A DNA stretch of 64,000 bases from assembly GCA_964016885.1 (NCBI GenBank), contig OZ024741.1, positions 214,892,001-214,956,000 on the forward strand, in the 5' to 3' direction. The DNA comes from Eledone cirrhosa (lineage: Eukaryota). Of this stretch, positions 3,925 to 61,354 are shown piece after piece; the stretch's first letter is position 1; every line of letters begins with the position of its first letter. A model generated the notes under the pieces. It was not told where the DNA came from, searched no databases, and saw only the letters and a program-made list of their open reading frames with translations. The translations under genes and the position numbers were made by a program.

Positions 3925-4110
3925 ATTATGAGTTGGTAGATCCAGTAGATTGAGACGCTTTCGAAATATATATTTATTTATCTGTTTTGCAAGGTTTTTG
4001 ATATGAAATCGTGTACCGAAACAAATATTGTTATACTTGGGGTGGGTCATATTGTTATAATATTGCCTGGAATAATAACAGAACACACTCACTGTTTGGT
4101 TGGTTTTCGC
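3925..4110 (-). mobile_element. PLE pseudo-LTR tail/ORF-start fragment related to the 13850-22974 element
   Basis: Translates MTHPKYNNICFGTRFHIKNLAKQI versus MTLPKYNNIGFNTRFQIKNLAKQI at 18595. Confidence 0.8.
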
Positions 4111-5272
4111 TTCTGTATCTTTTATATCTCCATAGTTAATCTATCTGGCCATTTATCTCACTCTCTCTAACTGTCTATCTAACGTGTCTGTCTGTGTCTT
4201 TCCCTCTATTTCTCCTCTTCTTTTTTTCTATCTATCTACTCCCCCCCCCTCACTCTATCTAGCTGTCTATCAATCTATCTATCTATTTATCTAACACTCT
4301 TTCGCTTACAAATTGTTATCAAGGTAATACATTTTAACTTATTATCATCCTGTAACACATGAAACTACATCATTGAAAAATAAATAAAAACAAAAACATT
4401 ATGAAGTGCATCACATTCAGAATGTATGATCTCACTGTATTTAATACCTGACATTTCCAAAACAATCAGTCCACTAGTAACAATACTATAAACATTTGAA
4501 GTAACACACCAAACGAAATTACATAAGCTAGACATTCTTACAATAACTTTATGATGGGATCATATTTGCCCACAAATAAAGATACTATAAACATTTGAAT
4601 GAACAAACTTATTTTTAAATATTCTCTGCTAACTCATTACAGGGTGATCAGAATTAATATATGAAAGTTAGACAAAAGCAGAGAAGGAGAGACTAGTAGA
4701 TTTCGGAGTCGGCAATAGTTAATCAATTATATTAGTAAATTTAAATAATTCTGTAAAGAATATAAATATCTTAATATTTCGTGCAACATTTCTTTGTCAT
4801 GGCGACAATTTTTGTTTCACAATTAGGTTTAGGAAGCCGCTGTAATACAGACGGAGCTCTCAAAATCGAAGTTACAATATCAAAACAGGAAAGAAAGAAA
4901 GAAAAAGAAGGAAATCGGAATGCCATCTTCGTGATATAACTTTCCCAAATGGCCCAAAAGTGGTAAAAGTATTATGTTCTTGTGTAAAATACTTACAGAT
5001 TTTATGGCATTATTTGTTTTATTCTAAGAATAGTGGATTAGCAAGATCGGTAGAGCATCGAACAACATACTTTGTGGCATAGAGATACGGCCGTATACGT
5101 TCTGAGTTTAAATCTCGCTGAGGTTAACTTTGCCTTTCATGCTTACGGTGTCAATAAATATATATGCACATATATGTATTTCATTCTATGGTTAACTTAT
5201 TTACATTTTTTTAAACGAAAATCTCATTGCTGAATTCTAGCACGTAGTGAATAGTTGAATTCCACTACTAGA

Positions 5273-5675: not shown

Positions 5676-6391
5676 GAGGCTGGACTGGTGTAATTCCTGA
5701 AAATGTTTATTATACTATGATCATTTCAGTGACCGGGTTCAGTATGAATCCGGTGACATCATCAGGTATTCGAAATTTAACAAAGGAATATCATAGACAA
5801 AATACATGAGGCTGATAATCAGAGACATGAGGGCGGCCGAACATTTAGTAGTTTCTGTAAATTGTTTAAGTAAATCTCCCAACTTTAAACCTAGATCTTA
5901 CTTTTCTAATTTCCTCTTAAATGGCATCTTTTAACTCTAAACATAAATTTAACGTTTCTAATTGTTAATCGTAATTTCTGACCCTACAATATACTGTGCA
6001 GACGCCCACTATATATAGCTTTGTTAAAGATATATGTTTTTTGAAAAAATATTTTTCGCGCCACTTTCTAGCACTTCCGACCAGCTTGAATGTAACCTGA
6101 TCTCACCGCTGGACTCTGTCTATGACGGGGTAGTAGTAGTACACTATAAGCCTAAGCCCCTCCACTAGAAGGACATAGGAAGACTTATTAATCATCACTT
6201 GAGGGCGGTTGACCGGGCTAGAAGCTGCTAAATATTCGGCCGACCTCATGTCTCTGATTTTCAGCCGCATGGATTTTGTCTATGATATTCCTTTGTTACA
6301 TTTCGAATACCTGATGATGTCACCGGATTCATACTGAACCTGGTCACTTAAATGATCATAGTACAATAAACCTTTTAAGGAATTACACCAG
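5672..6391. mobile_element. PLE-type insertion with inverted arms (5685-5856 / 6220-6391), each arm carrying an HHR motif (5712-5769 minus; 6307-6364 plus)
   Basis: Arms are reverse complements. ATAC-CTGATGA-stem II-GAAA-TGATCA-TA-GTAT. Starts at the edge of an (AT)n tract; related copy at 46610-46713. Confidence 0.75.
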
Positions 6392-9894: not shown

Positions 9895-9989
<95 letters not shown>

Positions 9990-10539
9990 ATATATAAGAA
10001 CAAAAGATGGTTAAAAGAGTTCCATGTATTTTATTATGTGCATTTCAAAAACAAATATCATCATGCAATAATATTTGTGTTTTCATCAGATAAAACAGGA
10101 AGACATGATATGAAGGTTAAAAAACACTTGTGGATAGTGCAGTTTTAAATCAACATATGAAAAGTAGTTTTAGATTGATGTGTGATATTGGGAAAAAATA
10201 TTTTATTTTGAGGGTGGGGGGTGGAAAGGATGAAAAAGAGGAGGAGATGAGAGTAAAAAGTGGAGAGGGAGGAGTATAATGAGGAAGGATGAGATAGGAG
10301 GAGAGATGGGTGATAGAGAGAGAGAGATAGCTTTTATAACTGAGAGAAATATATTGTTTTACATAGAGAGGTTGAAAACCGTTGGAAGATAATGTATAAA
10401 TTAAAAGAATTTGAAAATTAACGAAGAGAAAAAAATAATGTAAAGTTAAGGTTTGTATATTGAAGGGTTTAATAATATGTGCGATGAAAAGAAAATGTTA
10501 ATATGTATTAAGAATAATATTTAAGGGTTTAATAATAGG

Positions 10540-10998
10540 TCACTCGTTAATAATCTCTCTAATCGCAATTGCAATTGCCCTGTTAAAAATAAATGTCCTC
10601 TCAACAACCATTGTCTTGATAAAAACTTAATTTACGAATGTAAAGTTATAACTGACACCAATTCCTTCACCTATTTTGGCTCCACTTCCACCTCCTTTAA
10701 AGCTCGTCTTTATAACCATCATTCGTCTTTTAAATACAAACTTAAAAGAACCAACACGGCTCTCTCAGAACTCATATGGTCCTTGAAAGACAAAAATATT
10801 AAATATAGCATCTTTTGGAAGAAGCTTTCTTCTGCGTCTTCATACTTGAACAGTTCTCTATCCAAGATTTGCAATCTCTGTCTAAATGAAAAATTTACCA
10901 TTATATCTAATTTAGACTCTATAATAAATAGACGCACTGACTTGTTTTCTATCTGCTTGCATAAATTCCACAAAACATTCCACAAAGTATACAGCTAA
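10540..10998 (+). pseudogene. PLE GIY-YIG endonuclease C-terminal fragment (open frame, no start)
   Basis: CNCPVKNKCPLNNHCL..LIYECKV..TYFGST..FKARLYNH..ALSELIWSLK..CNLCLNEK..INRRTDL..CLH. Confidence 0.85.
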
Positions 10999-11950
10999 TA
11001 TCCAAAACTTTATCAAATTAGAATATTTTTCTCAAAGGCACATATATATATATATACTTCTTTAAAAATATACCCATCTTTCTACCTTATTTCAAAGTTA
11101 TTTATTATACATTATATAATACTTGTTACTCATTCTATATCACTCCTATTTATCACTTCCCTTTCTTCTCTTTTTCTTTTAATGTCTAACCCCTAATCTG
11201 TACCTTTTCTCACTGTTGCCTAACATAGAAACAATTATTACATAATACAATACATTCTTACTCTATATCACCTTGTAAAAATCCTTCGTAAACATAAACA
11301 TTTTTGACGTTAGATTATTCATCCTCAATTCATTATTTTTTTCTCCCTTTCATCTAACTTACTCATGCTCATCTCACAATATATCCTTATTTACATTACT
11401 TGTTGCTCTTTTTAATAATACATATCAACATTTTCTTACCATCGCACATATTATTAAACCCTTAAATATTATTCTTAATACATATTAACTTTTTCTTTCC
11501 ATCGCACATATTATTAAACCCTTAAATATTATTCTTAATACATATTAACATTTTCTTTTCATCGCACATATTATTAAACCCTTCAATATACAAACCTTAA
11601 CTTTACATTATTTTTTTCTCTTCGTTAATTTTCAAATTCTTTTAATTTATACATTATCTTCCAACGGTTTTCAACCTCTCTATGTAAAACAATATATTTC
11701 TCTCAGTTATAAAAGCTATCTCTCTCTCTCTATCACCCATCTCTCCTCCTATCTCATCCTTCCTCATTATACTCCTCCCTCTCCACTTTTTACTCTCATC
11801 TCCTCCTCTTTTTCATCCTTTCCAGCCCCCACCCTCAAAATAAAATATTTTTTCCCAATATCACACATCAATCTAAAACTACTTTTCATATGTTGATTTA
11901 AAACTGCACTATCCACAAGTGTTTTTTAACCTTCATATCATGTCTTCCTG

Positions 11951-12017
11951 TTTTATCTGATGAAAACACAAATATTATTGCATGATGATATTTGTTTTTG
12001 AAATGCGCATAATAAAA
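11951..12017 (+). ncRNA. Type I hammerhead ribozyme (inverted copy at 10029-10095, minus)
   Basis: TTTTAT-CTGATGA-long stem II-GAAA-TGCGCA-TA-ATAAAA; canonical core, palindromic stem III ATGCGCAT. Confidence 0.85.
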
Positions 12018-12490
12018 TACATGGAACTCTTTTAACCATCTTTTGTTCTTATATATTATGTATACTCCAGTCCTACAAACTGTAGAGTGCTTCTTATCCG
12101 ATATCTGCATTGCTTTATTGTACTACAATAAAACTCACCTCCTACATTATATATATATATATATATATTTGGTTATGTCAATATTTATAAAACAGACTTT
12201 GTATTTCATCTAATGAGAGCGTACCAAAGTTCAGGTACCCTTGAAATATATATAATAGAATAAATATGGTTTTATAAATATAGTTTCCACTTATTTAATA
12301 TCATTATATATATATTTATATAGGTATATACACGTATATATATGCTAGCAGAATGGCCCGGCGTTGCTCGGGATTTGCTCTGGGGTTCTTATATAGTTGA
12401 TATATATTTATCCTTATCGAGCCTCGTGAAATAAATACGTTTGTTTATATTTTGTTATTGCGTATGCAAAAATATCTGTACACGAAAATA

Positions 12491-12532
<42 letters not shown>

Positions 12533-12660
12533 GGTATCCACAGTAAGTTGTGGGGTCTATTCTGCATGAAGAACTCGATGTAATCACTATGTTGAAAATG
12601 TTGTAGGTTAAGATAAATCACGGAAAACAATAAAACATTAAAAGGAAAACAGAGCCATGA

Positions 12661-13040
12661 TATAAGTTAAAACAATGAAATAAAAACTCATGTCATTAGA
12701 GATATACTTCACTGTTTTACGATCGTTTCTAGGTGATGATAATACATTGTAGCTATACTCCGTTATTGATATATGTAATGTTAGTGACAAAATATCAGAT
12801 AAAGAGAATATTAACGTACATGCATATGACCCGCTGTTTTCAAAACCAATTTGCATTTGAAAACAGCTGGTGATATGCATGTAAGTAAATATTCTCTTTA
12901 TCTGATATTTTGTAACTAACCTTACATAGATCAATAACGGAGTATAGCTACAATGTATTATCATCACCTAGAAACGATCGTAAAACAGTGAGGTATATCT
13001 CTAATGACTTCATTTTTTATTTCATTGTTTTAAATTATAT
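12661..13040. repeat. About 380-bp near-perfect palindrome (fold-back element) between (AT)n tracts
   Basis: Arms are reverse-complementary about centre ~12852 and carry the HHR 3' half GAAA-CGATCG-TA; related fragment at about 9790-9885. Confidence 0.85.
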
Positions 13041-13124
13041 ATATATATATATAAAAACAAATGACGAAACGAAATTAAATTTCGTTTCGTTTGTAACTCA
13101 CTTTTGTATGACTGACGCTTAAAC

Positions 13125-13479
13125 AATTAAGTTAAAAAAAAATTACATCTACATATGCATACTGAAATACTAGTGTGTATATGAATACACACACGTATAC
13201 ATATGTATATGTAACAAGTCTTTCACTGGTTGCTTTACTGTGAGCACCCAGCTATTCTGTATGTAAACACACAGACAAACCGGTTTTTAGAGTCATACTT
13301 TTTTGTATGACTCTAAAAACCGGTTTGTCTGTGTGTTTACATACAGAATAGCTGGGTGCTCACAGTAAAGCAACCAGTGAAAGACTTGTTTCATATACAT
13401 ATGTATACGTGTGTGTATTCATATACACACTAGTATTTCAGTATGCATATGTAGATGTAATTTTTTTTTTAACTTAATT
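13125..13479. repeat. About 355-bp near-perfect palindrome (fold-back element)
   Basis: Arms pair almost base for base around a T6 loop at ~13301; the right end runs into (AT)n. Confidence 0.9.
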
Positions 13480-13784: not shown

Positions 13785-13856
<72 letters not shown>

Positions 13857-14356
13857 ATACTTTGGGAGGGTCATGTTGCCAATAAGAAACACACGCACCA
13901 GTTGCTTTCACTTCAATTTAATTTAATATATATTTATAAATTTACAAATTTATAAATTTCTGGTTGGTTGGTTGGTTCCACAACCAGATAGTTGTTTATA
14001 TATATATAGTCATAGTTCTTTCGTCACACACTCTGTGACCTCTTCAGTGACTGGGGATTTCTTTCTTCGTTTCTGTGCCTTTCCTTTCTTCTATCCTACG
14101 CCATTTTGTTTGTGTGTGGGTTGCGTGCTCAGTTTGCGCATGCGCCACATCCGGGTGTCTGTGTGTGTTTGTGTTCATTTTTCTATTTTTATATTTTTAT
14201 ATTTATATTTGTTTGTTTATTTATTTATTTATTGTTGGTTGGTTGTTTGTTCTATGTGTGTGTGTGTTTTCATTTTGTCTTGTGTGTGTTTTCATTTTGT
14301 GTGTGTTTTCAATTGTAAGTTGTTTATATATGTGTGTGTGTGTTTTCATTTTGTCC

Positions 14357-17300
14357 TTAATTGTAAGTTGTGATGTTGCTGTTCCACTCATATTTTCTAT
14401 TTAATTTTGGTTTTAATTCTTTTATGCTTACTGCCTCTGTAATTTGCCTAAACATTGCGTCTTTCTTGTGTGTGGATTCTATTTTTATTTCTATGCTCTC
14501 TAATTTACCCCTGTGTTCTATCTTAGCATGTTGGTAGAGCACAGATGATTCTTTACTATCTTGGAGGTCTCGCCAGTGTTCATTTATTCGTTCCCCTATA
14601 CTACGAGCTGTCTCACCTATGTACACTATATTTTTGTTTCTACATTGTCCCTCAGTACATCTTATGCTATATACTACATTTCTAGTTTTACAGTTAATAT
14701 GGGGGCTTATTTTACAGGTTATACATTTCTTATCTATACATGAGGGTCTTTGGAACGGGTATGTCTTGCTAATAAGTGTTTTTACGGAGGTACCAGGTCT
14801 TTCTACTATCTTAATATTGAGATTATGTTTCTTTAGGGCCCTTCTAAATTTGTAGGCTAGTTCACCTCTAGGGGTTGTATTGATGAACATTACACTCTGG
14901 TATTTATTGCTATCATACCATGAGTTTATTCTATTGGCCTTGTTCTTAGTTCTTTCTATTCTATTCCAAAATTTGCTCCTATACAAGGGGCAGGTCCCAT
15001 TTATGTCATTATTTACCATTTTTTCCCATTTGGTTCTGGCTCCTTTATACACTCTGATTCTATCTCTCTGATTGTAGCCAGAGAACTGCATACGGTGGAT
15101 GAAGTGTTGTATGTGTCTCTCTAGTTCTTCGGGGTTGCACATGCGGGACACATTTCTCATCACCCGTATCAAATCCGCAATCAGTATGTTGATTTTGGTA
15201 TGGTCCGAAATGGCCGAGTTTCGGTGGATCAGATGTTTGGAAGTCATGGGTTTGGCATAATGGGAATGGAGGATTTGTTTTTGGTTGTTAATAGTATCTA
15301 ACCAGAGCTCTGTGTCTAGTACAGGTAATCGATGGTTGGGGTGTCTACTTGGGTAGTCTATAGTAACTCTAATGCTCTGGTGGATGGAGTTTGCTATTTG
15401 CTGGATGCTTTCCATTGTGTTTTTCTCAGGTTCCTGACTGTTCTTTAGTGGGGGTGTCTTAACTACGATGTTTATATCATCTACGTAGCGGGAGTACATT
15501 ATCAGGGTTAATCTGTCTTCTAATTGTTCTTTAAGTTTTTGTTTAAGTCTACTGTCCCACCATACCATGAACAAGTTAGCTATGTCGCCTGCAATGCTAA
15601 CACCAATGGCTGCTCCTTCCTCTTGGGCATATGTTTTACCATTAAATTTGAACATATGTTCCTTAAGGGTTAATTTTATGCTGGCCCCTACCGCATGTGC
15701 AATCATTTTCTTCAGTTCATCGTGGTTTTCGGGTGTCCGTATGGCTCTGGTCCACCCGTTCCATCTATCTGTGTGGGTTTTCTTGGCCATTGAGGTAATG
15801 GTAGGTGGTCTGCCTCTTGCTGGTCTTGTAGGGCACAGGTTGCTAAGGTCATAAGTGTCTAGGTAACTATTACTATGGGTAAGCTTAAGTAGAAGTCCCA
15901 GCTCACTGGTATCAATCCCACGGAACTCAACCTTGCTCTCGCTGATCATTTCGACGCATTTCTCCACAGCAAAATCCACGTCAATAGATGGATACAGGGA
16001 CACAACATCCATACTGCCTATTATGCAGTTTGTTAGGTCCCCAGATCGGTTACCCGCGTCGATTCTGCTGAGGAGGTCCTCCGTGCTGTCACACACATCT
16101 GGGGACATCTCAATGATGGGGCGTATGATCAGGGAGAGGAAGTAGGACAGTCTGTAGTTACTAGCAATGTTAGCCCCACAGACTGGCCGTGTTGGTGGTC
16201 CCGCGACAGGGTCCCAGCCCGTTTTATGGTCTTTTCGAAGCCCATACAACGCCGGCACGTCATTGTTCCAGACCTGGAAGTTGTTGGCAGTCCTTTTGTT
16301 GGGCTGCATTATATTTGTCCACATCACCATATGGGCATTGAGGGTTTTTTCTCTGTCCTCATGCTCCTGTGGTGTTACCTCTCTTGTGTTAGTGATGTGG
16401 GGTTGCATTGCCTGGATGTAGTTTGGCAGGCTGTCAACCGACATTCTGCCAGACTTGTCTGTTGGAAAGCATGCTATCTCTCCATTACGCGAGCGCTGCA
16501 TGAGCTTACGCAAGCCATTTGCAGATTCTTCTCCCAGTTGCTGGGCCTCTATTCTATTATGCTTCTTGCTATACTGTTCTATAATATTTCTAAGTTCGGA
16601 TTTAGCTATACTAAATTGTGCTTCTGTTTGTTCATCGACCTGCGACGGCAACTGCGTGCGTTTGTTAAATGGCAAAGTCGTGGCGTGGACTCGTCGTAGG
16701 TCGAATGATTTATCGGAGTGGTTATAAAACGGAGAGTTCCAGGCTGCTGCTTTATGTGTACTTGCGCTATTGTTAGTTGTGTTGTTTCTATTTCCACCAA
16801 CAGCAGCAGCCTCAGCTTCATGGTTGTTTCTATGTCTCTCATAATTACTCCTGTCTCTTTCCACTGGCTCAATGTTGTTATCTACCCTATTTTGTGTGTC
16901 TGTGTGTTCGTCTTGGTTATTCTCTTTGTCCTTAGTCTCCCTACTCCTTTTAATCCTATTACTTTCTCTTATTTCTCTGATTTCTGTGCTACTGTCATTA
17001 CTTGTTTTCTGTGTCTGTGTGTTTGTTAAGATTGTAGTGGTGGTGAGAGGCATTGAATGTGTGTGTGTTGTTGTTGTTGATGTGTGTTGTTGTTGATGTG
17101 TGTTGTTGTCTCCGTGTGTGTGTGTGTTATCGTTGTTGTGTGTGTTGTTATTGTTGTTTGTGTTTGCGTGTCTGTTGTTGTTGTATCTGGGTATGTTGCT
17201 GTTGTTGTTGTTGTTGATGTGTGTGTTGTTGTTATTGTTGTCTCCGTGTGTGTTGTTATTGTTGTTTGTGTCTGCGTGTCTGTTGTATCTGGGTATGTTG

Positions 17301-17573
17301 CTATTGTTGGTATTGTATCTGGGTATGTTGCTATTGTTGTTGTTATTGTTTGTGTCTGTGTGTCTGTTGTTGTTGGGATGTGTGTTGTATATGTGTGTGC
17401 GTATATTGTTGCTTTTGTTTTTGTTTTTGATGCTCCAGCGTAGTTTCGTAAATGATTTTTCTATTTCTGACAGACAACTAATCATATTTACCTTCTTGAA
17501 TGTCGCAAATTTGGGTGGCAAACGTAACACAGACATTTCATTATTATCTATTTTCGTGTTTCCATAAATGTTG
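14357..17573 (-). pseudogene. 5'-truncated inverted copy of the PLE RT/GIY-YIG ORF
   Basis: Identical to the 19182-22398 protein except NFQV versus NFQA. Confidence 0.95.
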
Positions 17574-18104
17574 TTCATCAATACAACCCCTAGAGGTGAA
17601 CTAGCCTACAAATTTAGAAGGGCCCTAAAGAAACATAATTTCAATATTAAGATAGTAGAAAGACCTGGTACCTCCGTAAAAACACTTATTAGCAAGACAT
17701 ACCCGTTCCAAAGACCCTCATGTATAGATAAGAAATGTATAACCTGTAAAATAAGCCCCCATATTAACTGTAAAACTAGAAATGTAGTATATAGCATAAG
17801 ATGTACTGAGGGACAATGTAGAAACAAAAATATAGTGTACATAGGTGAGACAGCTCGTAGTATAGGGGAACGAATAAATGAACACTGGCGAGACCTCCAA
17901 GATAGTAAAGAATCATCTGTGCTCTACCAACATGCTAAGATAGAACACAGGGGTAAATTAGAGAGCATAGAAATAAAAATAGAATCCACACACAAGAAAG
18001 ACGCAATGTTTAGGCAAATTACAGAGGCAGTAAGCATAAAAGAATTAAAACCAAAATTAAATAGAAAATATGAGTGGAACAGCAACATCACAACTTACAA
18101 TTAA
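17572..18104 (+). pseudogene. GIY-YIG C-terminal duplicate inside the upstream pseudo-LTR
   Basis: Same as the C-terminus of the main ORF except KHNF versus KHNL. Confidence 0.95.
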
Positions 18105-18306
18105 GGACAAAATGAAAACACACACACACATATATAAACAACTTACAATTGAAAACACACACAAAATGAAAACACACACAAGACAAAATGAAAACACACA
18201 CACACATAGAACAAACAACCAACCAACAATAAATAAATAAATAAACAAACAAATATAAATATAAAAATATAAAAATAGAAAAATGAACACAAACACACAC
18301 AGACAC

Positions 18307-18362
18307 CCGGATGTGGCGCATGCGCAAACTGAGCACGCAACCCACACACAAACAAAATGGCG
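18307..18362 (+). promoter_or_regulatory. Candidate pseudo-LTR promoter (ETS-like CCGGATGT, NRF1-like GCGCATGCGC, YY1-like AAAATGGCG)
   Basis: GC-rich island in an otherwise A/C-rich UTR, just upstream of the HHR and ATG; function inferred. Confidence 0.45.
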
Positions 18363-18416
18363 TAGGATAGAAGAAAGGAAAGGCACAGAAACGAAGAAAC
18401 GAAGAAAGAAATCCCC

Positions 18417-18461
18417 AGTCACTGAAGAGGTCACAGAGTGTGTGACGAAAGAACTATGACT
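18417..18461 (+). ncRNA. Minimal type I hammerhead ribozyme in the pseudo-LTR (copies at 22711-22755 plus and 14008-14052 minus)
   Basis: AGTCA-CTGAAGA-g-GTCACA/TGTGAC-GAAA-GAAC-TA-TGACT. Confidence 0.8.
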
Positions 18462-18594
18462 ATATATATATAAACAACTATCTGGTTGTGGAACCAACCA
18501 ACCAACCAGAAATTTATAAATTTGTAAATTTATAAATATATATTAAATTAAATTGAAGTGAAAGCAACTGGTGCGTGTGTTTCTTATTGGCAAC

Positions 18595-21500
18595 ATGACC
18601 CTCCCAAAGTATAACAATATCGGTTTCAACACACGATTTCAGATAAAGAATCTTGCTAAACAAATTCAGAAACGAAATATCGTAAGCCTTAGCCAGGCTA
18701 ACAAGATACTGAAAACCACCATGTTCTGTTGTCTACGAAAAACCATAACATCTCGACAACTACACTTCATAAAACTGTGCACCACTTCTAGAATCTACAC
18801 CAACACCATCAATACCGACGTTAGAAGATTACAACTCACCAAAAAACAAGCAGATAGGCTAAAATGAACTTTAATTCTAAACATAAAAAAGAAGATCTAT
18901 AGAGAATTAAGTCATCAAGAAAAACTAAAGCGTAACCTAATAGATGAAATATCTAAAATCACCACACCAGCAGAAAAACTAACATTTATAAGCCTTATAC
19001 GCCCCGAAGAACAGTACATTACTCAAGAATGTAATAAGCACTTTAACAGAAAATTAAAGTGGCTTAAACAGGCAAAGCTAAATCGGGATACTATAGAGTA
19101 TACCAATAGATATCCCGACAAAATTGACGGTATCAACATGGCCGACACCTCATTATCTGAAGAGTTCAACAATAAAAATACCAACATTTATGGAAACACG
19201 AAAATAGATAATAATGAAATGTCTGTGTTACGTTTGCCACCCAAATTTGCGACATTCAAGAAGGTAAATATGATTAGTTGTCTGTCAGAAATAGAAAAAT
19301 CATTTACGAAACTACGCTGGAGCATCAAAAACAAAAACAAAAGCAACAATATACGCACACACATATACAACACACATCCCAACAACAACAGACACACAGA
19401 CACAAACAATAACAACAACAATAGCAACATACCCAGATACAATACCAACAATAGCAACATACCCAGATACAACAGACACGCAGACACAAACAACAATAAC
19501 AACACACACGGAGACAACAATAACAACAACACACACATCAACAACAACAACAACAGCAACATACCCAGATACAACAACAACAGACACGCAAACACAAACA
19601 ACAATAACAACACACACAACAACGATAACACACACACACACGGAGACAACAACACACATCAACAACAACACACATCAACAACAACAACACACACACATTC
19701 AATGCCTCTCACCACCACTACAATCTTAACAAACACACAGACACAGAAAACAAGTAATGACAGTAGCACAGAAATCAGAGAAATAAGAGAAAGTAATAGG
19801 ATTAAAAGGAGTAGGGAGACTAAGGACAAAGAGAATAACCAAGACGAACACACAGACACACAAAATAGGGTAGATAACAACATTGAGCCAGTGGAAAGAG
19901 ACAGGAGTAATTATGAGAGACATAGAAACAACCATGAAGCTGAGGCTGCTGCTGTTGGTGGAAATAGAAACAACACAACTAACAATAGCGCAAGTACACA
20001 TAAAGCAGCAGCCTGGAACTCTCCGTTTTATAACCACTCCGATAAATCATTCGACCTACGACGAGTCCACGCCACGACTTTGCCATTTAACAAACGCACG
20101 CAGTTGCCGTCGCAGGTCGATGAACAAACAGAAGCACAATTTAGTATAGCTAAATCCGAACTTAGAAATATTATAGAACAGTATAGCAAGAAGCATAATA
20201 GAATAGAGGCCCAGCAACTGGGAGAAGAATCTGCAAATGGCTTGCGTAAGCTCATGCAGCGCTCGCGTAATGGAGAGATAGCATGCTTTCCAACAGACAA
20301 GTCTGGCAGAATGTCGGTTGACAGCCTGCCAAACTACATCCAGGCAATGCAACCCCACATCACTAACACAAGAGAGGTAACACCACAGGAGCATGAGGAC
20401 AGAGAAAAAACCCTCAATGCCCATATGGTGATGTGGACAAATATAATGCAGCCCAACAAAAGGACTGCCAACAACTTCCAGGCCTGGAACAATGACGTGC
20501 CGGCGTTGTATGGGCTTCGAAAAGACCATAAAACGGGCTGGGACCCTGTCGCGGGACCACCAACACGGCCAGTCTGTGGGGCTAACATTGCTAGTAACTA
20601 CAGACTGTCCTACTTCCTCTCCCTGATCATACGCCCCATCATTGAGATGTCCCCAGATGTGTGTGACAGCACGGAGGACCTCCTCAGCAGAATCGACGCG
20701 GGTAACCGATCTGGGGACCTAACAAACTGCATAATAGGCAGTATGGATGTTGTGTCCCTGTATCCATCTATTGACGTGGATTTTGCTGTGGAGAAATGCG
20801 TCGAAATGATCAGCGAGAGCAAGGTTGAGTTCCGTGGGATTGATACCAGTGAGCTGGGACTTCTACTTAAGCTTACCCATAGTAATAGTTACCTAGACAC
20901 TTATGACCTTAGCAACCTGTGCCCTACAAGACCAGCAAGAGGCAGACCACCTACCATTACCTCAATGGCCAAGAAAACCCACACAGATAGATGGAACGGG
21001 TGGACCAGAGCCATACGGACACCCGAAAACCACGATGAACTGAAGAAAATGATTGCACATGCGGTAGGGGCCAGCATAAAATTAACCCTTAAGGAACATA
21101 TGTTCAAATTTAATGGTAAAACATATGCCCAAGAGGAAGGAGCAGCCATTGGTGTTAGCATTGCAGGCGACATAGCTAACTTGTTCATGGTATGGTGGGA
21201 CAGTAGACTTAAACAAAAACTTAAAGAACAATTAGAAGACAGATTAACCCTGATAATGTACTCCCGCTACGTAGATGATATAAACATCGTAGTTAAGACA
21301 CCCCCACTAAAGAACAGTCAGGAACCTGAGAAAAACACAATGGAAAGCATCCAGCAAATAGCAAACTCCATCCACCAGAGCATTAGAGTTACTATAGACT
21401 ACCCAAGTAGACACCCCAACCATCGATTACCTGTACTAGACACAGAGCTCTGGTTAGATACTATTAACAACCAAAAACAAATCCTCCATTCCCATTATGC

Positions 21501-22398
21501 CAAACCCATGACTTCCAAACATCTGATCCACCGAAACTCGGCCATTTCGGACCATACCAAAATCAACATACTGATTGCGGATTTGATACGGGTGATGAGA
21601 AATGTGTCCCGCATGTGCAACCCCGAAGAACTAGAGAGACACATACAACACTTCATCCACCGTATGCAGTTCTCTGGCTACAATCAGAGAGATAGAATCA
21701 GAGTGTATAAAGGAGCCAGAACCAAATGGGAAAAAATGGTAAATAATGACATAAATGGGACCTGCCCCTTGTATAGGAGCAAATTTTGGAATAGAATAGA
21801 AAGAACTAAGAACAAGGCCAATAGAATAAACTCATGGTATGATAGCAATAAATACCAGAGTGTAATGTTCATCAATACAACCCCTAGAGGTGAACTAGCC
21901 TACAAATTTAGAAGGGCCCTAAAGAAACATAATCTCAATATTAAGATAGTAGAAAGACCTGGTACCTCCGTAAAAACACTTATTAGCAAGACATACCCGT
22001 TCCAAAGACCCTCATGTATAGATAAGAAATGTATAACCTGTAAAATAAGCCCCCATATTAACTGTAAAACTAGAAATGTAGTATATAGCATAAGATGTAC
22101 TGAGGGACAATGTAGAAACAAAAATATAGTGTACATAGGTGAGACAGCTCGTAGTATAGGGGAACGAATAAATGAACACTGGCGAGACCTCCAAGATAGT
22201 AAAGAATCATCTGTGCTCTACCAACATGCTAAGATAGAACACAGGGGTAAATTAGAGAGCATAGAAATAAAAATAGAATCCACACACAAGAAAGACGCAA
22301 TGTTTAGGCAAATTACAGAGGCAGTAAGCATAAAAGAATTAAAACCAAAATTAAATAGAAAATATGAGTGGAACAGCAACATCACAACTTACAATTAA
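18595..22398 (+). CDS. PLE polyprotein (reverse transcriptase + Cys linker + GIY-YIG endonuclease); one in-frame TGA at 18865-18867
   Basis: PTDKSG, LYGLRKDHK, RPV, SMDVVSLYPSI, GAAIG, RYVDD, NVVYSIRC..YIGETARS..ERINEH. ORF 18571-18867, segment 18868-19137 and ORF 19138-22398 share one frame with no other stop. Confidence 0.93.
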
Positions 22399-22968
22399 GG
22401 ACAAAATGAAAACACACACACACATATATAAACAACTTACAATTGAAAACACACACAAAATGAAAACACACACAAGACAAAATGAAAACACACACACACA
22501 TAGAACAAACAACCAACCAACAATAAATAAATAAATAAACAAACAAATATAAATATAAAAATATAAAAATAGAAAAATGAACACAAACACACACAGACAC
22601 CCGGATGTGGCGCATGCGCAAACTGAGCACGCAACCCACACACAAACAAAATGGCGTAGGATAGAAGAAAGGAAAGGCACAGAAACGAAGAAACGAAGAA
22701 AGAAATCCCCAGTCACTGAAGAGGTCACAGAGTGTGTGACGAAAGAACTATGACTATATATATATAAACAACTATCTGGTTGTGGAACCAACCAACCAAC
22801 CAGAAATTTATAAATTTGTAAATTTATAAATATATATTAAATTAAATTGAAGTGAAAGCAACTGGTGCGTGTGTTTCTTATTGGCAACATGACCCTCCCA
22901 AAGTATAACAATATCGGTTTCAACACACGATTTCAGATAAAGAATCTTGCTAAACAAATTCAGAAACG

Positions 22969-23010
<42 letters not shown>

Positions 23011-23015
<5 letters not shown>

Positions 23016-23760
23016 CATACATATATATAAAGTCATAGATATATATCTGTTTTGCAATCGGTCACATTGTGGCTCAATCAGAAATTCAGAAATTAATTTA
23101 AATTAAATAATCAGAGCGATATATCATAAATATGTCTTTAGAATCACTAGATATAATATATACCATTTCCTCTCTCAATTAGTATAATTACCGATATAAA
23201 AAATCAATTAGACCAAGCTATAAGTATAAAGGCTGCTATGAAGAAATCTTCGACAAACAACCGAAAGCAGCCCCTTCGCGGTGGCTACAATAGATTATTT
23301 ATCTAACATTTCGATAGCATGTAAAAATCGACCAGATATACAGTCAACTAAACACAATTATGTGTTAAATTGAACTTAGAAGAATTGCGTACATATCAAA
23401 TTACCTCTACCATGGTTTCATCCGTATTTTAAGACATCCTATAATAAGCTATATCCGGAGCTTCGGAATCATCAGGAGCGAGCTCCAAATAAGACATTTA
23501 ATTATCCAAAGTGATCGCGCCAAAAATACATTCAAAAATGGCTAAGAATCATGACGTGGCAGCGGTCAAGTTAGAAAGGATGTGACTAGTTGCTTACGGC
23601 GGGGAGGCTTATTGCTAGAAAGCGCAGCCTAATATCGCCAAATTGTATCACAACCTAACGGGAGATTATTACATATAAAGATTTACATACATATAAAGTC
23701 ATAAATATATATGTGTTTTGCAATCGGTCACGTTGTGGCTCAATGAGAAATTAATAAATT
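23011..23760 (-). mobile_element. About 670-bp non-coding monomer with terminal direct repeats and an HHR (23405-23478); retrozyme-like
   Basis: 23011-23085 is repeated at 23681-23752. Minus strand CTC-CTGATGA-tTCCG...CGGAt-GAAA-CCATGG-TA-GAG. Relatives at 53190-53720 and 60595-60810. Confidence 0.75.
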
Positions 23761-23886
23761 ATAATATATATATATATATGTATATATACGTATAAGCATA
23801 TGTATATATATGTATATATAAATACATGTATGTATCATCATCATCATCCTCACAGTTTTACGTCCGTTCTTCCAAGCTACCATGGG

Positions 23887-35115: not shown

Positions 35116-35280
35116 TACTAATGTATTTTTCTAATTCATTAATATAATATGTTATAATTTCTTCATTTCTTCATCACCACTACCATCATTTTTACCATCA
35201 TCAGGATCATCATTTATCGTTACTCTCCCCGTCCCATCAAATTGCTGGCCTTGTGCCTAAATCAGAAACTATTATTATTA

Positions 35281-35397
35281 TTACGGCCATATCACGCTGA
35301 AAACATCGGTTCTCGTACGATCACCGAAGTTAAGCAACGTCGAGCCTAGTTAGTACTTAGATGGGTGACCGCTTGGGAAACCTATATGCTGTAAGCA
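35281..35397 (+). rRNA. 5S rRNA copy (probable pseudogene)
   Basis: TTACGGCCATATCACGCTGAAAAC..TCTCGT.CGATCACCGAAGTTAAGC..GTTAGTACTT.GATGGGTGACCGCTTGGGAA..GCTGTAAGCA; first two bases missing, several substitutions, solitary. Confidence 0.88.
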
Positions 35398-35404
35398 TTT
35401 CCTT

Positions 35405-36770
35405 TAAAAGAGTGGTGGATTGGCAGTATCGGGAGATGGTCGGGCGCCATACTTTGCAGCAAATAGTTACGGCCCTTTACGATCTGAGTTCAAATCTCGC
35501 CGAGGTTAACGTTGCCTTTCATCTTTATGGGGTCGATAAAATAAAGTACCAGTAATGTACTGGTTAATTGCTGGCTTTGGGTAGATTTAATCGACTTTCC
35601 CCTCCCCCTAAATTACTGGCTTTGTGCCTATATAAGAAACCACGTATAGAGTTACGGCCCTTGCCATTCTAAGTTCAAATCCCGCCGAGGTTAACTTTGT
35701 CTTTCAACCTTACGGGGTCGATAAAATAAAGTACCAGTAATGCACTAGGTAATTGATGGCCTTGTGCCAAGAGTAGAAACAATTATTATTATTGTTTGTT
35801 ATTAGGGCGGTGGATTGGCAATATCGGTAGAGTTTCGGACACCATGCTTTGAAGCATAGAGTTACATCCCTTTATGATCTGAGTTCAAATTCCGCCGAGG
35901 TTAACTTTGCCTTTCATCCTTGCGGGGTCGATAAAATAAAGTACCAGTAATGTACTGTGTAATTGTGCCAAAAGTAGAAACAATTATTATTGTTATTATT
36001 AGCTTTGCTTTTGATACTTACGAGGTCGGTAAATAAAGTACCAGTTATGTACTGGGGTAAATTTAATCGACTTTCTCACCCCTCAAATTGCTGGCCTTGT
36101 GCCTAAATCTGAAACTATTATTATCATTATTATAAGGGCGGTGGACTTGCAGTATCGGTAGAACGTCGAACAACATGCATTGCGGCATAGAGTTGTGGCC
36201 TTATACCTTCTGAGTTCAAATCCCGCTGAGGTTAGATTTTTTTCTTTCATTCTTTCGGGGTCGATAAAATAAGTACCAGTAATGCACTTTCCCCTCGACT
36301 TTCCCCTCACCATCAAATTGCTGGCCTTTTGCCTAAAGTAGAACCAAGTATCATCAATATTATTATGGGTTAATTGGCACAATCGGTAGAGCATCCGACA
36401 AAATGCTTTGCGGCATATAGTTACGGCCCTTTACGGTCTGAGTTCAAACCCCGCTGAGGTTAGCTTTGCTTCTCATTCTTTCAAAGGTCGATGAAATAAA
36501 GTACCAGTAATGAACTGGAGTCATTTAATTGGCTTTCCCTTCCTCTCAAGTCATTGGCCTTTTGCCGAAATCAAAAACCTTTATCATTGGCGGTATCGGA
36601 CGCCATGCTTTGACGCATAGAGTTACGGCCCTTGTCATTTTGACTTCAAATCCTGCCGAGGTTAACTTTGCCTTTCATCCTTACGGCGTCGATAGAATAA
36701 AGTACCAGTAATGTACTGTTATAATTGCTGGCCTTGTGCCAAAAGTAGAAACAATTATTATTATTGTTAT
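35405..36770 (+). mobile_element. Head-to-tail cluster of about 7 family-2 SINE copies and fragments
   Basis: Repeated GAGTTCAAATCCCGCCGAGGTTAACTTTGCCTTTCATCC units with (ATT)n tails, all in the same orientation. Confidence 0.9.
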
Positions 36771-38775: not shown

Positions 38776-39094
38776 GTGTGTGTGTGTGTAATTCCTCAGT
38801 TAGTAACAGAGTGGTTAGTGTGTTATTATTTCTTTTTTATTTCCACCATCTTGGTTAAAATACTCTCTGGTTGTGTTCTATCTCTCAGAACATCACTACT
38901 ACGAATATATCTAACATTTTTTAGCAAATAACATCTATTATATCCTCAGGGTTTCAAACGAGATAGAGTCTCGTCTAATAAGTTCTAATAAATGAAACTG
39001 CAGGAAATAGGACGCGCCTATATACATACATATATTAATAGTTACATATATGTATATATTTATACATGGGTACATGGGTAAATATATATATATA

Positions 39095-39330
39095 TTATTA
39101 GAAATGTAAGCTATCGCCATATTTTGACTAAAGAAATTAAAGAAATTATTTAGCCTAATAGTGGGGTTAAGAACCCACGCAGAAATGGAAAAAAATGAGT
39201 ATTGACGTACATTGGAGTCAATACTTATCTTTTTCCATTTCTCCGAGGGTTCTTAACCCCACTATTAGGCTAAATAATTTCTTTAATTTCTTTAGTCAAA
39301 ATATGGCGATAGCTTACATTTCTAATAATT
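39095..39330. repeat. About 235-bp palindrome; single-arm relative at 34350-34465
   Basis: Arms are reverse-complementary about ~39212. Confidence 0.85.
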
Positions 39331-39652
39331 TCAAACCCACTCGCTCTTTCGAAAATATTCTTACTTGACATTACATTCGCTAAGTTTATAGCTTCTAATT
39401 TGAATGGAAAAAGACGGGTGATGGTAGCACATGTTGTTCCAATCGGAAACCATGTTTATTCCCTTTCAGAAACTAATTAGTTGGAGTGAAATTTTAGTAA
39501 GTAAGTTAATTTTTATAATTTTCTTATTTTACGTCTTTCATATTATTGTTCTGCATCCCCTTGCATTGAACCACAAAGTTACTAAGACAAAACCTATATA
39601 TTTGCCAGCATAGGTATGCATCTGTATATATATGTTGGTAGATATACTAATT

Positions 39653-39708
<56 letters not shown>

Positions 39709-39714
<6 letters not shown>

Positions 39715-40296
39715 CGTAGTTAAGAAAGCCACAACAATGCAGAGGGGAATCTCGAGGTAGGAAGTGAATGATAGATAGGAGAAACAGGTGAAAGTGAAAA
39801 TTGAGAGAGTCAAAGATGAAAACAAAACAAAGGTAGAAGGGTTACCGTAGTGGAGATTTAATCCCAATATTTCGGGCTCACGCCCATCAACGGGGGAAAA
39901 GTTCCAAAAGGGGGGGAACAGGCCAAGCGGAGAAAGTTGTGATGTCGTTAAGACAGGAATGCCGTTATGAATGTCGTTAAGACAGGAATGCCGTTAACGG
40001 CATTCCTGTCTTAACGACATCACAACTTTCTCCGCTTGGCCTGTTCCCCCCCTTTTGGAACTTTTCCCCCGTTGATGGGCGTGAGCCCGAAATATTGGGA
40101 TTAAATCTCCACTACGGTAACCCTTCTACCTTTGTTTTGTTTTCATCTTTGTCTCTCTCAATTTTCACTTTCACCTGTTTCTCCTATCTATCATTCACTT
40201 CCTACCTCGAGATTCCCCTCTGCATTGTTGTGGCTTTCTTAACTACGTATTTTACACATTTCACAATGCTTCAAGCAAACTTTAACACCCTCTTAT

Positions 40297-40300
<4 letters not shown>
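39709..40300. mobile_element. Fold-back element with variant HHR (40065-40100 plus, 39862-39897 minus)
   Basis: Near-perfect inverted arms with a short tandem duplication at the centre; TCCC-CCGTTGA-t-GGGC GTGA GCCC-GAAA-TA-TT-GGGA. Confidence 0.75.
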
Positions 40301-40361
<61 letters not shown>

Positions 40362-41377: not shown

Positions 41378-41412
<35 letters not shown>

Positions 41413-41415
<3 letters not shown>

Positions 41416-41610
41416 TGATTACACAACAGTTAGTTCACCATACGGAGAACAATTGTTTCACCTTAGAGGATCCTCAGCTCGGATCCGCTAAGGTGAAACA
41501 ATTGTTCTCAGTATGGTGAACTAACTGCTGTGTAACCACTTCTACCTAACTCGTCCCATGGACTGAGTGCTCTACCACTACGGATATTACTTTCCAGTGT
41601 TCCACCACTA
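41413..41610. mobile_element. Small fold-back element with HHR (41445-41480, minus); relative at 60995-61175
   Basis: GAG-CTGAGGA-tCCT cta AGGt-GAAA-CAATTG-TT-CTC. Confidence 0.7.
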
Positions 41611-41794
41611 TATATATATATATATTTGAAGAATAATGACTTCACTTGTAGTGTTAAAATATTTTATTTAATTTTATAATATTATAAAATTAAATCAAAG
41701 TTTTAACACTACAAGTGAAATCATTCTTTTCCCTTTTTTCAAATACTGTACCAAGGATCTCACAAATTTTCGAATATATATATATATATATATA

Positions 41795-45606: not shown

Positions 45607-45665
<59 letters not shown>

Positions 45666-45671
<6 letters not shown>

Positions 45672-45815
45672 ACTAGAAATTGATTAACATATAAATATAC
45701 ATGAATAATCACAGGAGATAATTTTTACAAGCCATGCGTGATTACACGCTTGTAAAAATTATCTCCTGTGATTATTCATGTATATTTATATGTTAATCAA
45801 TTTCTAGTTATTATA
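45666..45815. repeat. About 150-bp palindrome at the edge of an (AT)n tract
   Basis: Arms are reverse-complementary about ~45740; single-arm relative at about 46940-47030. Confidence 0.85.
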
Positions 45816-45926
45816 AAATGCTCGGATATATCTTTGAGCTTATTTCCAGGCGATATGGCGCACGCTGTTATGGCATGACACCCACAATTTCGATTTGGAT
45901 TTAATTCATTTAATTTATCTTAATTT

Positions 45927-45974
<48 letters not shown>

Positions 45975-46007
45975 AAAGAATAGAGGTGTAACACACAAGT
46001 TATTATA

Positions 46008-46478
46008 TATTGGTAAACGGAATAGAAAATGCTGACAAATTGTTCACAGTTGAAAAATGGTTTAATTAGGAATAAAAGAGTATTAGTGATTGTATGGGTT
46101 AGTATTCAGTTGTGGTTTTAAGTTTTTAAGTTTTTACCGGTTGCGCATTTCTAAATGCTTTTCAAAAATAATTTTGAGATAGAGTGTCCGTGTTGTTTGC
46201 TCTGATCCGTGTTGTTTGCTCTGATCTAAATGCTTTTCAAAAATAATTTTGAGATAGAGTGTCCGTGTTGTTTGTTCTGATCAGAGCAAACAACACGGAC
46301 GCTCTATCTCAAAATTATTTTTGAAAAGCATTTAGAAATGCGCAACCGGTAAAAACTTAAAAACTTAAAACCACAACTGAATACTAACCCATACAATCAC
46401 TAATGCTCTTTTATTCCTAATTAAACCATTTTTCAACTGTGAACAATTTGTCAGCATTTTCTATTCCGTTTACCAATA
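46008..46478. repeat. About 470-bp fold-back element with internal tandem duplication
   Basis: Inversion point CTGATCAG at ~46280; 46151-46206 is duplicated at 46226-46282. Confidence 0.85.
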
Positions 46479-46651
46479 AATATATATATATATGTATATA
46501 TATATATGCGTGTGTGTGTGAGTATAAGATAAATAAATACATATATATATATATATATAACGAAGGAAGTGTGGTAAGGAACCAGATGGACCATATATTG
46601 AGTAAAATGACAGGAGGCTGGACTGGTGAGATTCCTTCAAAGATTTATTAC

Positions 46652-46713
46652 AAACACTATGTACATTTCAATGACCAGGTTCTGTAGGATCCTGGTGACA
46701 TCATCAGTTGTTT
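46652..46713 (-). ncRNA. Type I HHR, relative of the 5712-5769 motif
   Basis: AAACAa-CTGATGA-..ACCAGG/CCTGGT..-GAAA-TGTACA-TA-gTGTTT. Confidence 0.72.
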
Positions 46714-53128: not shown

Positions 53129-53189
<61 letters not shown>

Positions 53190-53190
<1 letters not shown>

Positions 53191-53720
53191 TAACTCATGT
53201 CTAAAGAATTAATCAGATATTAAAATATATACTATTTCTTCTTCTAATCAGCATAATTAACCATATACATAATCAAATCTAGCAAGCTTTAAGAATAAAT
53301 TTTCTAACGGGGAAATCTCCGACAAATAACTGATCGCAGCTAGTTCGCGTTAACTCCGTTCACCATTTATCAAACATTTCGGCAGCATGCAGAATCTGAT
53401 CAAATACACCGTCAACCGCACGTAATTAGTAGTAAAATTAAACTTAGAAGAAATGCGCACATACCGTAATTATATCTCTACCATGGTTTCTTCCTAGTTT
53501 AGGACATCCAAATAATATGGATATGCTTTTTTGAGTCAGGAATCTTCAGGAGACAAACTCAGAAATAGACATTTAATTTCTCAGACAGACCGCGCCAAAT
53601 TTAGATTCAAAAATGGCTAAGATCGCTATGTAGCTGTGTACCAGCCAGAGAGAAAGCGTGTGATTGGTCGCTTACGGCGGGTAGGCATGCTGCTAGAAAG
53701 CGCAGCCATATACCGCCAAA
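53190..53720 (-). mobile_element. Diverged copy of the 670-bp family; HHR at 53473-53555
   Basis: TGTCTC-CTGAAGA-TTCCTG...TAGGAA-GAAA-CCATGG-TA-GAGATA; collinear with 23120-23643. Confidence 0.78.
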
Positions 53721-54468
53721 TATATATATATATATATATATACAAAAAGTTATGAAACGAAAGGAGCTGTGTGGTTACTAAAAACAAGGTTTAGGATTGT
53801 GGTAGGACGGAACAGGAGGAGAAAGGAAGAAAGGAGTTTCCATCGTCAGGTGCAAATGTTTCCCGAACCGATGTTTCGGCGCTGAATTGCAGGACATCGG
53901 TGTAGTTCGGGTGCGCCCGAGGCCTTTTATTAATCAAAAGGCCAGGTGGAAAAGGAGAGAGAAAGAGAAAAAAAAGGGGAGAAAAAAAGAGAGAGAAAAG
54001 GAAAGAGAGGGAAAGGAGGAAGACCATGGGGGGGGGGGGGAGAAAAGGAAAGGAATAGGAGAAAAAAAGTGTACAGGTCCCATCGTGGGAAGACACAGGT
54101 GAAAGAAAGATGCAAAAAAGTAACCGTGGAAAAATAGGGAAAGTAAGTTGTGGTCAACCTGGGAGACTTTAGCCTGGTGGTCAGCTACGACGCAGAGCTG
54201 GTATAATCGTGCTGCCTCTCACATAGAGAGGGGAAAGTGAGAGAGAGACACGGGCAACCAAAAGTGAGGAGGAGAAGGGAAAGGGAGATAATCCAGAAGG
54301 GTTTTTTTTTACGACGGTGGTAAAAACGTGCCGCAAAGATTGCGAACAGAGAAGCCACCACGGCACGTGTAAACATGTCAACAATCGTAACCGAACGGAT
54401 GGATAGAGAGAGATTGGGAGATAGAAAAAAACGAGAGTGAGGAGGATATATATATATATATATATACA

Positions 54469-60373: not shown

Positions 60374-60518
60374 CCGAATTGGTGTGGGAAAGACAGGTAC
60401 ACATGTTGTTGAAGTGTATTTTACTCCGTCAATCCATCGATATGTCCAGCTCCTGGTAGTGTTGTTATTTCTCTGAGGAACTGCATACTGAGGTGTCGGT
60501 AAACAACCAACATATACT

Positions 60519-60594
<76 letters not shown>

Positions 60595-60595
<1 letters not shown>

Positions 60596-60810
60596 TTTAC
60601 ATATATATATACATATATATATACATATACGTGTTTTGCAACGGCTCACTTTGTGGCTCAATGAAAATTTAATAAATTAAATAATCAGAGCTATATATTA
60701 TAAAACATGTCTATAGGATCACAAGATAAAATATATACCATTTCCTCTCCCAAGGGAGAGGAAATGGTATATATTTTATCTTGTGATTCTATAGACATGT
60801 TTTATGATAT
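60595..60810. mobile_element. Truncated fold-back copy of the 670-bp family
   Basis: Matches 23011-23175, then inverts at ~60752 (hairpin 60695-60810). Confidence 0.75.
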
Positions 60811-60842
60811 ATATATATATATATATATTGAGTATATGTTGG

Positions 60843-60912
<70 letters not shown>

Positions 60913-60924
60913 CCAACATATACT

Positions 60925-60960
<36 letters not shown>

Positions 60961-61326: not shown

Positions 61327-61354
61327 TTTATATATATATGTATATATATAAAAT

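Follow-up and report, generated by a model that had tools for sequence, protein, structure and literature searches.

The window (the whole 64,000-nt stretch of Eledone cirrhosa contig OZ024741.1 analysed here) is AT-rich animal DNA rich in microsatellites and retroelements, and contains three copies of a non-coding unit of 666–670 nt with a GC content of 34%, each housed in a (TA)n tract as insertion site (Table 1). Copy 1 (23013–23765, minus strand), at about 1.12 units the largest, carries a single ribozyme and consists of the unit plus a terminal redundancy of about 80 nt. The earlier note had described end repeats of about 75 bp bounding an ORF-less monomer of about 670 bp, and this was confirmed: 23670–23761 matched 23000–23095 with 86% identity (96 columns with indels, E = 5e-23; 55 of 59 positions identical in the gap-free core), the period was 670 at the left end and 666 beyond a 4-nt indel within a TA run, and the longest stop-free frames spanned 58 codons in copy 1 (22 from an ATG) and 41 in copy 2 (27 from an ATG). 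Copy 2 aligned to copy 1 over 544 columns (53183–53721 to 23119–23643; 72.4% identity, E = 1e-86). The third copy, reported at 60595–60810 as truncated and folded back, was indeed so built, with 60596–60753 matching copy 1 at 80% and an inverted piece at 60750–60802. No tandem with two ribozymes was seen in the 64-kb window, where neither nhmmer nor a covariance model found a fourth copy; the unit lacked terminal inverted repeats, and bacterial and archaeal genomes (searched with one pattern) and phages gave no match to it. In the GC-richer region upstream of the copy 1 ribozyme, which holds words that we take to be E2F-like and YY1-like, the identical runs of 15–18 nt shared with copy 2 equalled chance expectation at that identity, promoter-like blocks were not significantly conserved with two copies, and folding was not significant (z = −1.6 and −1.9).

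Table 1. Features of the three copies of the 670-nt unit and of their flanks (positions in the window).
Feature	Position	Strand	Description
(TA)n target tract	22971..23012		3' end of the young PLE and ribozyme-strand 3' end of copy 1, tail-to-tail
Copy 1, 3' terminal repeat	23013..23095	-	AT-rich; presumed initiation site of reverse transcription, 395 nt beyond the cut site
Copy 1, rod	23154..23398	-	Predicted, +10 to +254; apex loop CGCGAA near 23273-23278; basal pairs p 0.83-0.99
Copy 1, hammerhead	23405..23478	-	Type I, core 23475-23408, U·U helix II base, cut after 23408
Copy 1, GC-richer region	23514..23643	-	Upstream of the ribozyme, small hairpin; possible promoter
Copy 1, 5' terminal repeat	23683..23765	-	Start of a second unit; pseudo-LTR in PLE terms
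Copy 2	53189..53721	-	0.8 unit (-242 to +290 relative to the cut site), flanked by (TA)n at either end
Copy 2, rod	53215..53477	-	Predicted, +2 to +264; helix I 3' strand paired into its basal stem
Copy 2, hammerhead	53473..53555	-	Core 53549-53479, 6-bp helix I, 52-nt domain II; better preserved of the two
Flanks of copy 3	60505..60927		17-nt sequence, direct at 60505-60521 and 60911-60927, inverted at 60828-60844
Copy 3	60593..60815	-	3'-most 160 nt of the unit (terminal repeat, rod end) plus inverted 5' piece 60756-60815, in (TA)n

Copies 1 and 2 each encode a type I hammerhead (23475–23408 and 53549–53479) on the minus strand, a strand missing from the earlier note and opposite to that of the adjacent Penelope-like retroelement (PLE). 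The first box reads CUGAUGA in copy 1 and CUGAAGA in copy 2, free position 7 being the only core difference, and both core boxes are kept; the chance of keeping the 12 fixed core bases at 74% identity was 0.027. As had been claimed for the diverged copy (53190–53720), the hammerhead, the GUA cut site and an invariant stem III are retained. Helix III is the palindrome ACCAUGGU, common to copies 1 and 2, which forms two pairs and a tetraloop in a monomer and 8 bp in a dimer, as has been described for animal hammerheads that act as dimers (PMC4209133). Domain II measures 49 nt in copy 1 and 52 nt in copy 2 and comprises, in order, a basal pair (U·U in copy 1, U-A in copy 2), a stem of four pairs, an internal loop and, distally, a hairpin, so that helix II carries an insert of about 40 nt; the usual G10.1-C11.1 pair is missing. 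A U·U at this base is found in 14 of 25 Hydra-clade families (PMC8557442) and in the axolotl HHR_Amex2 ribozyme, which cleaves, and does so better as a dimer (PMC7229834). Eight of nine Xenopus retrozyme dimers showed no cleavage in vitro (bioRxiv 10.64898/2026.07.22.740005). The stem II covariation proposed earlier is present as UCCG-CGGA in copy 1 against UCCU-AGGA in copy 2, but amounts to one pair in two sequences, next to a 1-nt indel.

The hammerhead descriptor had a background of 0.05 matches per Markov-shuffled window (5 of 100 shuffles with one match), or about 5e-4 per 670 nt, and gave one further, weak match at 38484. Helix I has 3 bp in copy 1 and 6 bp in copy 2, and the active fold lies 10.6 and 3.4 kcal/mol above the predicted minimum, respectively; given its short helix I and the larger energy gap, the copy 1 ribozyme is probably decayed. 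In the ensembles of full-length monomers the ribozyme helices had near-zero probability. No opposite-strand hammerhead was found in the unit in two descriptor scans, and none in the terminal repeats. At the gathering threshold, Rfam recovered only a 5S rRNA from the whole window, and E-value scans of copies 1 and 2 returned no ribozyme family; these scans are uninformative, as the ribozyme of the neighbouring PLE was likewise missed.

About 250 nt behind the cut site are predicted to fold as one long imperfect hairpin, hereafter the rod, on the ribozyme strand only, a feature absent from the earlier note's reading of the unit. On the minus strand the z-scores were −4.58 for copy 1 (0 of 100 shuffles as stable) and −5.50 for copy 2 (0 of 200), against −1.36 and +1.00 on the plus strand; with the whole unit folded as a circle they were −4.2 for the ribozyme strand and −0.5 for the other, with 63% of the bases paired. 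The consensus of copies 1 and 2 holds 73 pairs; in 4 of these both partners have changed, and in 18 a single partner. When the structure was predicted from copy 2 alone, copy 1 retained pairing at 84 of its 100 pairs (null 73.1 ± 3.2, P = 0.0008), and when it was predicted from copy 1 alone, copy 2 retained 70 of 88 (null 62.2, P = 0.011); under a stricter null that keeps the substitution spectrum, the values became P = 0.017 and 0.076, respectively. The rod is kept between the copies mostly via A-U/G·U changes. G·U appositions outnumber A·C in the arms (20 vs 4 in copy 1, 28 vs 9 in copy 2), an excess that was not significant given arm composition (P = 0.08 and 0.25). The rod starts at +2 from the cut site in copy 2 and at +10 in copy 1, and its base is predicted to take the 3' strand of helix I with p of about 0.7 in copy 2 and 0.14–0.16 in copy 1. 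The rod may thus lock the ribozyme, a lead rather than a result that folding predicts in copy 2 only. A scan of the window for folding (188 scan windows past a low-complexity filter, up to 62401, six shuffles each) placed the copy 1 rod third in strand asymmetry, behind scan windows at 47841 and 56421, which lie in or beside simple or tandem repeats, and the copy 2 rod, split by the scan grid, fifth. Unlike the rod, the window's strongest foldbacks are DNA repeats that fold alike on the two strands.

The neighbouring PLE (13853–22970) is of the Neptune/Nematis type, with linker CX4CX2C, and its large protein has its best named relative in Octopus vulgaris (68% identity). Its pseudo-LTRs differ at 1 of 1109 sites, against 4 of 59 for the copy 1 repeats. 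The only copy with an N-terminus has an in-frame TGA at codon 91 (18865–18867), where homologues are open (11 alignments), and this copy, called autonomous in the earlier note, may therefore be dead. Its ribozyme (22712–22750, plus strand) is a minimal hammerhead that has an unpaired G and a G-C at the helix II base; the start ATG lies about 140 nt behind it, no rod follows it (z = −1.8), and the element ends +160 and +220 behind it, at ATAT matches to the target. Words at 22605–22655, 60–100 nt upstream of this ribozyme and presumably NRF1-like and YY1-like, are a possible pseudo-LTR promoter. A diverged fragment of the 5' UTR and ORF start of this PLE was also found at 3980–4118 on the minus strand (E = 3e-9).

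The (AT)n tract that copy 1 was said to share with the end of the PLE is indeed common to both. A special tie between the two was not borne out: they lie on opposite strands, have different ribozyme subtypes and no detectable DNA similarity, and the PLE is much younger. The window moreover contains 37 TA tracts, several of them flanking copies of this family, so that a later landing of the PLE in the tract of copy 1, the probable order of events, is unremarkable, and the adjacency probably reflects only a shared target.

A second PLE in the window, a Hydra-clade-like remnant (9987–12059), retains the end of an endonuclease ORF (10525–10998) and a 3' region of about 1 kb; with the Hydra endonuclease as query, it escaped a word-index search but was located by a full scan. 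Its motif CxCX5C is common to 104 of 150 homologues, DKT occurs in four of five long homologues inspected, and RWK in homologues. The remnant bears a hammerhead at 11957–12011 (plus strand) and an inverted copy at 10089–10035 (minus strand), with a long helix II and an 8-nt palindromic helix III. A further hammerhead family occupies 5685–6391 and 46623–46707. Its motif at 5765–5716 (minus strand) combines a U·U base with a long helix II and a helix III that is an 8-nt palindrome; near 6310–6360 lies an inverted partner whose core is damaged, and around 46.6–46.7 kb there is a decayed relative. The family shows no similarity to the 670-nt unit. A minimal hammerhead at 60368–60330 (minus strand), about 230 nt from copy 3, has its first 15 nt in common with the neighbouring PLE ribozyme and is probably the end of yet another PLE family. 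Compared with the five other hammerhead-bearing regions of the window, the unit showed no homology (12 comparisons, best P = 0.07).

The unit is likely to be a non-autonomous passenger of PLEs that works like an animal non-LTR retrozyme. Transcription would produce the ribozyme strand and probably begin in the GC-richer stretch that precedes the ribozyme; within a tandem transcript, two ribozymes would pair via the 8-nt palindromic helix III and excise monomers, which a host ligase would perhaps circularise, and the rod, once made, would sequester the 3' strand of helix I and so help the RNA to stay uncut. A PLE protein that targets (TA)n, with the Hydra clade as its most likely source, would then nick a TA tract, and reverse transcription would start internally in the AU-rich stretch 290–400 nt behind the cut site, pass the rod and the intact cut site, and stop anywhere. 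A stop short of one unit would give copies 2 and 3, and one just over a unit copy 1 with its terminal repeat. The template would be an uncleaved tandem RNA or a religated circle, the two being about equally likely.

The copy ends bear on this scheme. The 3' ends lie at +395 (copy 1) and +290 (copy 2), with that of copy 3 near that of copy 1, and the corresponding 5' ends at −357 and −242. Like those of the neighbouring PLE, the 3' ends are located in AU-rich stretches that match the target. A microsatellite target, with all three copies in (TA)n, and 3' ends downstream of the ribozyme are features expected of a non-autonomous PLE. Copies 1 and 2 cross the cut site intact, and the template was therefore uncut or religated; since no copy ends at the cut site, a circle and an uncleaved tandem are indistinguishable, and the copy 1 redundancy fits both. 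The circular or tandem template postulated earlier holds in so far as copy 1, the one copy in which the closed unit junction is represented, exceeds one unit and needs such a template or a template jump, but redundancy is no proof of a circle, because in vitro the reverse transcription of PLEs begins at internal positions of uncleaved RNA: a Poseidon PLE protein initiates downstream of its ribozyme and needs neither homology nor cleavage (PMC11167929). Work on retrozymes favours circles. The inverted 5' piece of copy 3, the variable copy ends and the copy 1 redundancy, a partial tandem giving a pseudo-LTR, fit a non-autonomous PLE derivative, 5'-inverted pieces being a PLE hallmark (PMC8557442). 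The copy 3 inversion and its thrice-repeated 17-nt flank match target-primed insertion with template switching, and the flank repeats themselves resemble a target duplication combined with such switching. Ribozyme type is what singles out the Hydra clade as the most likely partner, since the unit has no DNA similarity to the PLE ends of the window and six of its 12–14-nt motifs were absent from the Naiad/Chlamys/Hydra supplement, in a search that motifs split by line ends would escape. A Naiad parent, to which HHR_half_core notes for octopus pointed, was rejected, as the Naiad_Ovul 3' end has its two core halves in reverse order and no likeness by eye.

When compared with known systems, the unit resembles the animal non-LTR retrozymes described in PMC7229834 and bioRxiv 10.64898/2026.07.22.740005 in its type I hammerhead motif (helix II being atypical), short palindromic helix III, lack of protein-coding capacity, GC content below 50%, self-paired RNA, as seen in the circular fold, and co-occurrence with PLEs. 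It differs from them in its domain II of about 50 nt and in consisting of dispersed (TA)n insertions of 0.25–1.1 units, in a window without tandems; most animal retrozyme circles are, moreover, predicted to leave the ribozyme free, while the 250-nt rod of the unit may block it. The unit is larger than typical retrozymes, as the earlier note held, when set against the 170–400 nt of PMC7229834 or the 150–450 bp given in 2020, but falls inside the 51–972 bp of the families in the 2026 preprint, where the mean in ray-finned fish is 650 bp (bioRxiv 10.64898/2026.07.22.740005). The invertebrates sampled in that preprint are three insects and one coral. Earlier reports already connect retrozymes with PLE ends and include units of this size (bioRxiv 10.64898/2026.07.22.740005; PMC8490949; PMC7761336).

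With Hydra-clade PLEs, which are known from octopus (PMC8557442) and occur as the remnant in the window, the unit shares the (TA)n target, the U·U helix II base and a self-complementary AC..GT helix III, ACCA/UGGU in the unit; Hydra-1_oBim has helix III ACCA-A-TGGT and (TA)n targets (PMC8557442). Unlike them it has no ORF, and its insert of about 40 nt contrasts with the 3–10 nt of loop II in the published Hydra-clade table. No sequence match to the Hydra remnant of the window was detected, and none by eye to the Hydra-1_Obim 3' end. Like the neighbouring PLE, the unit has a type I hammerhead near an end, a (TA)n target and an inverted 5' copy; unlike it, the unit lies on the opposite strand, has a rod and more diverged repeats, and shares no DNA with it. 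Plant LTR retrozymes and hammerhead viroids are alike in size (near 600–1000 nt) and in a ribozyme predicted to be blocked by pairing, but their hammerhead is of type III, whereas the unit has one type I ribozyme per copy and an animal host. The plant type carries its hammerhead in both terminal repeats; here a single motif sits mid-unit, and inspection found no primer-binding site behind the repeat. Schistosoma W-elements are likewise non-coding (monomers of 475–1206 bp among the rows listed, at least four hammerhead families; PMC8490949) but form satellite arrays, unlike the dispersed unit. Non-autonomous Chlamys elements such as MRC1 have pseudo-LTRs like the unit (PMC8557442), a likeness by description, Chlamys elements being mostly without hammerheads. 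The unit probably combines the working mode of an animal non-LTR retrozyme with the insertion anatomy of a non-autonomous PLE.

An alternative that we regard as unlikely is that the copies are terminal fragments (a solo pseudo-LTR plus tail) of an unseen autonomous PLE, probably Hydra-like, with the redundancy a one-off template jump. Copies 2 and 3 do resemble ordinary truncated PLE ends, and the layout, ribozyme upstream and tail downstream, agrees with PLEs. In copy 1, however, the repeats of about 80 nt lie 357 nt before and 395 nt after the cut, which leaves no room for an ORF, and the unit lacks the RT and GIY-YIG ORF of autonomous PLEs (Hydra, Neptune). The 250 nt behind the ribozyme, where the neighbouring PLE has its ATG, form a hairpin without codon periodicity. 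Mismatches between copies 1 and 2 were flat across codon positions (14/12/11 and 10/9/12), and a coding reading suggested by some synonymous-looking codons was rejected on this ground. BLASTX of copies 1 and 2 against 88 neighbour-type PLE proteins gave a best E of only 5.2. Profile HMMs, built from 66 of these 88 and from 150 Hydra-type proteins, recovered both control ORFs (E = 1.6e-79 and 9e-57) but matched not one of the 12 frames of the element (best E = 0.49). According to the earlier note, longer copies linked to an RT/GIY-YIG ORF would reduce the unit to a pseudo-LTR; within the window, the search for such a link was negative. Pfam found nothing in the 12 frames but also missed two genuine PLE ORFs (0 of 14), and the one frame of the 12 searched against a protein database had no match. 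A weak 30-residue match of the copy 2 5' end (53711–53622) to the C-terminus of a Hydra-type endonuclease (E = 0.033), bettered by 0 of 200 shuffles and at a plausible distance from the ribozyme, would favour the fragment reading; it lacks the conserved residues of the family, is absent from copy 1, and gave E ≥ 0.49 with the 150-sequence profile. It keeps the idea of a deletion derivative alive but proves nothing. The earlier note's view of the unit as a non-autonomous, non-coding hammerhead family was borne out.

Decidedly doubtful, too, is a fuller version in which the unit is a 670-nt self-cleaving circular cephalopod RNA whose rod locks the ribozyme and is A-to-I edited, the edits being written into the genome at each retrotransposition. 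Among the pair-preserving changes of the rod, 21 of 24 are A-U/G·U, and A/G changes exceed C/T changes by 27 to 12 (P = 0.015), against 13 to 11 upstream; the two regions differ in this bias at P = 0.29 only, and one of eight control repeat pairs shows a ratio of 17 to 6. ADAR prefers a 3' G, and this context was found at 9 of 27 A/G sites against 6 of 49 unchanged A (uncorrected P = 0.037; three contexts were tested). The A/G excess is explained alike by editing and by selection for pairing in an AU-rich RNA. If it were editing, RNA editing would feed germline sequence change in a mobile element.

We consider it very improbable that the unit replicates as a viroid-like RNA circle and now and then is reverse-transcribed by a PLE enzyme into TA tracts. 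A rod-like fold and a ribozyme do occur on one RNA of viroid-satellite size, and the copies are 20–28% apart, mostly by wobble-type changes. Ribozymes in both polarities would be expected of a viroid- or HDV-like circle, however, and hammerhead descriptors (two scans) and Rfam detected none on the opposite strand; the rod covers about 40% of the unit, bacterial genomes and phages held no match, and three DNA copies in 64 kb indicate a genomic family. Equally hard to credit is an old DNA foldback or MITE-like repeat with a chance or dead hammerhead motif, for although DNA foldbacks are common in the window, the ribozyme fold differs from the predicted minimum and Rfam gave no match (as it also gave none for the neighbouring PLE's ribozyme), the low descriptor rate, the cores and palindrome kept at 72% identity, the strand specificity of the rod where DNA foldbacks score alike on both strands, its start within 10 nt of the cut site and the absence of terminal inverted repeats all speak against it.

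Under the reading as a PLE passenger with a retrozyme-like mode, the novelty lies in the joint occurrence of TA targeting, a ribozyme of Hydra type with an insert of about 40 nt, and a long strand-specific rod at the cut site. No description of the unit as a cephalopod retrozyme-like family was found in the literature covered, most subscription papers and Repbase lying outside that scope. It would be such a family, tying these passengers to a PLE clade by ribozyme type and target. Because of its long helix II and non-tandem copies, the unit escapes the published screens, which use a core spacer of 7–17 nt (PMC8557442) or at least two tandem units (bioRxiv 10.64898/2026.07.22.740005), and similar families may therefore be widely missed. 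Being small and non-coding, and having a defined rod, a ribozyme and an AU-rich start zone, the unit would be a convenient template for asking whether the PLE hammerhead serves a circle or an uncleaved tandem.

The window further contains many near-perfect DNA foldbacks, among them those at 12660–13479, 39094–40347, 41410–41728, 45665–46559 and 61178–61327, several of them bounded by (TA)n like the inversion of copy 3, and a 5S rRNA gene (Rfam, 91 bits) with clustered copies of a short interspersed repeat immediately behind it (35279–36770).
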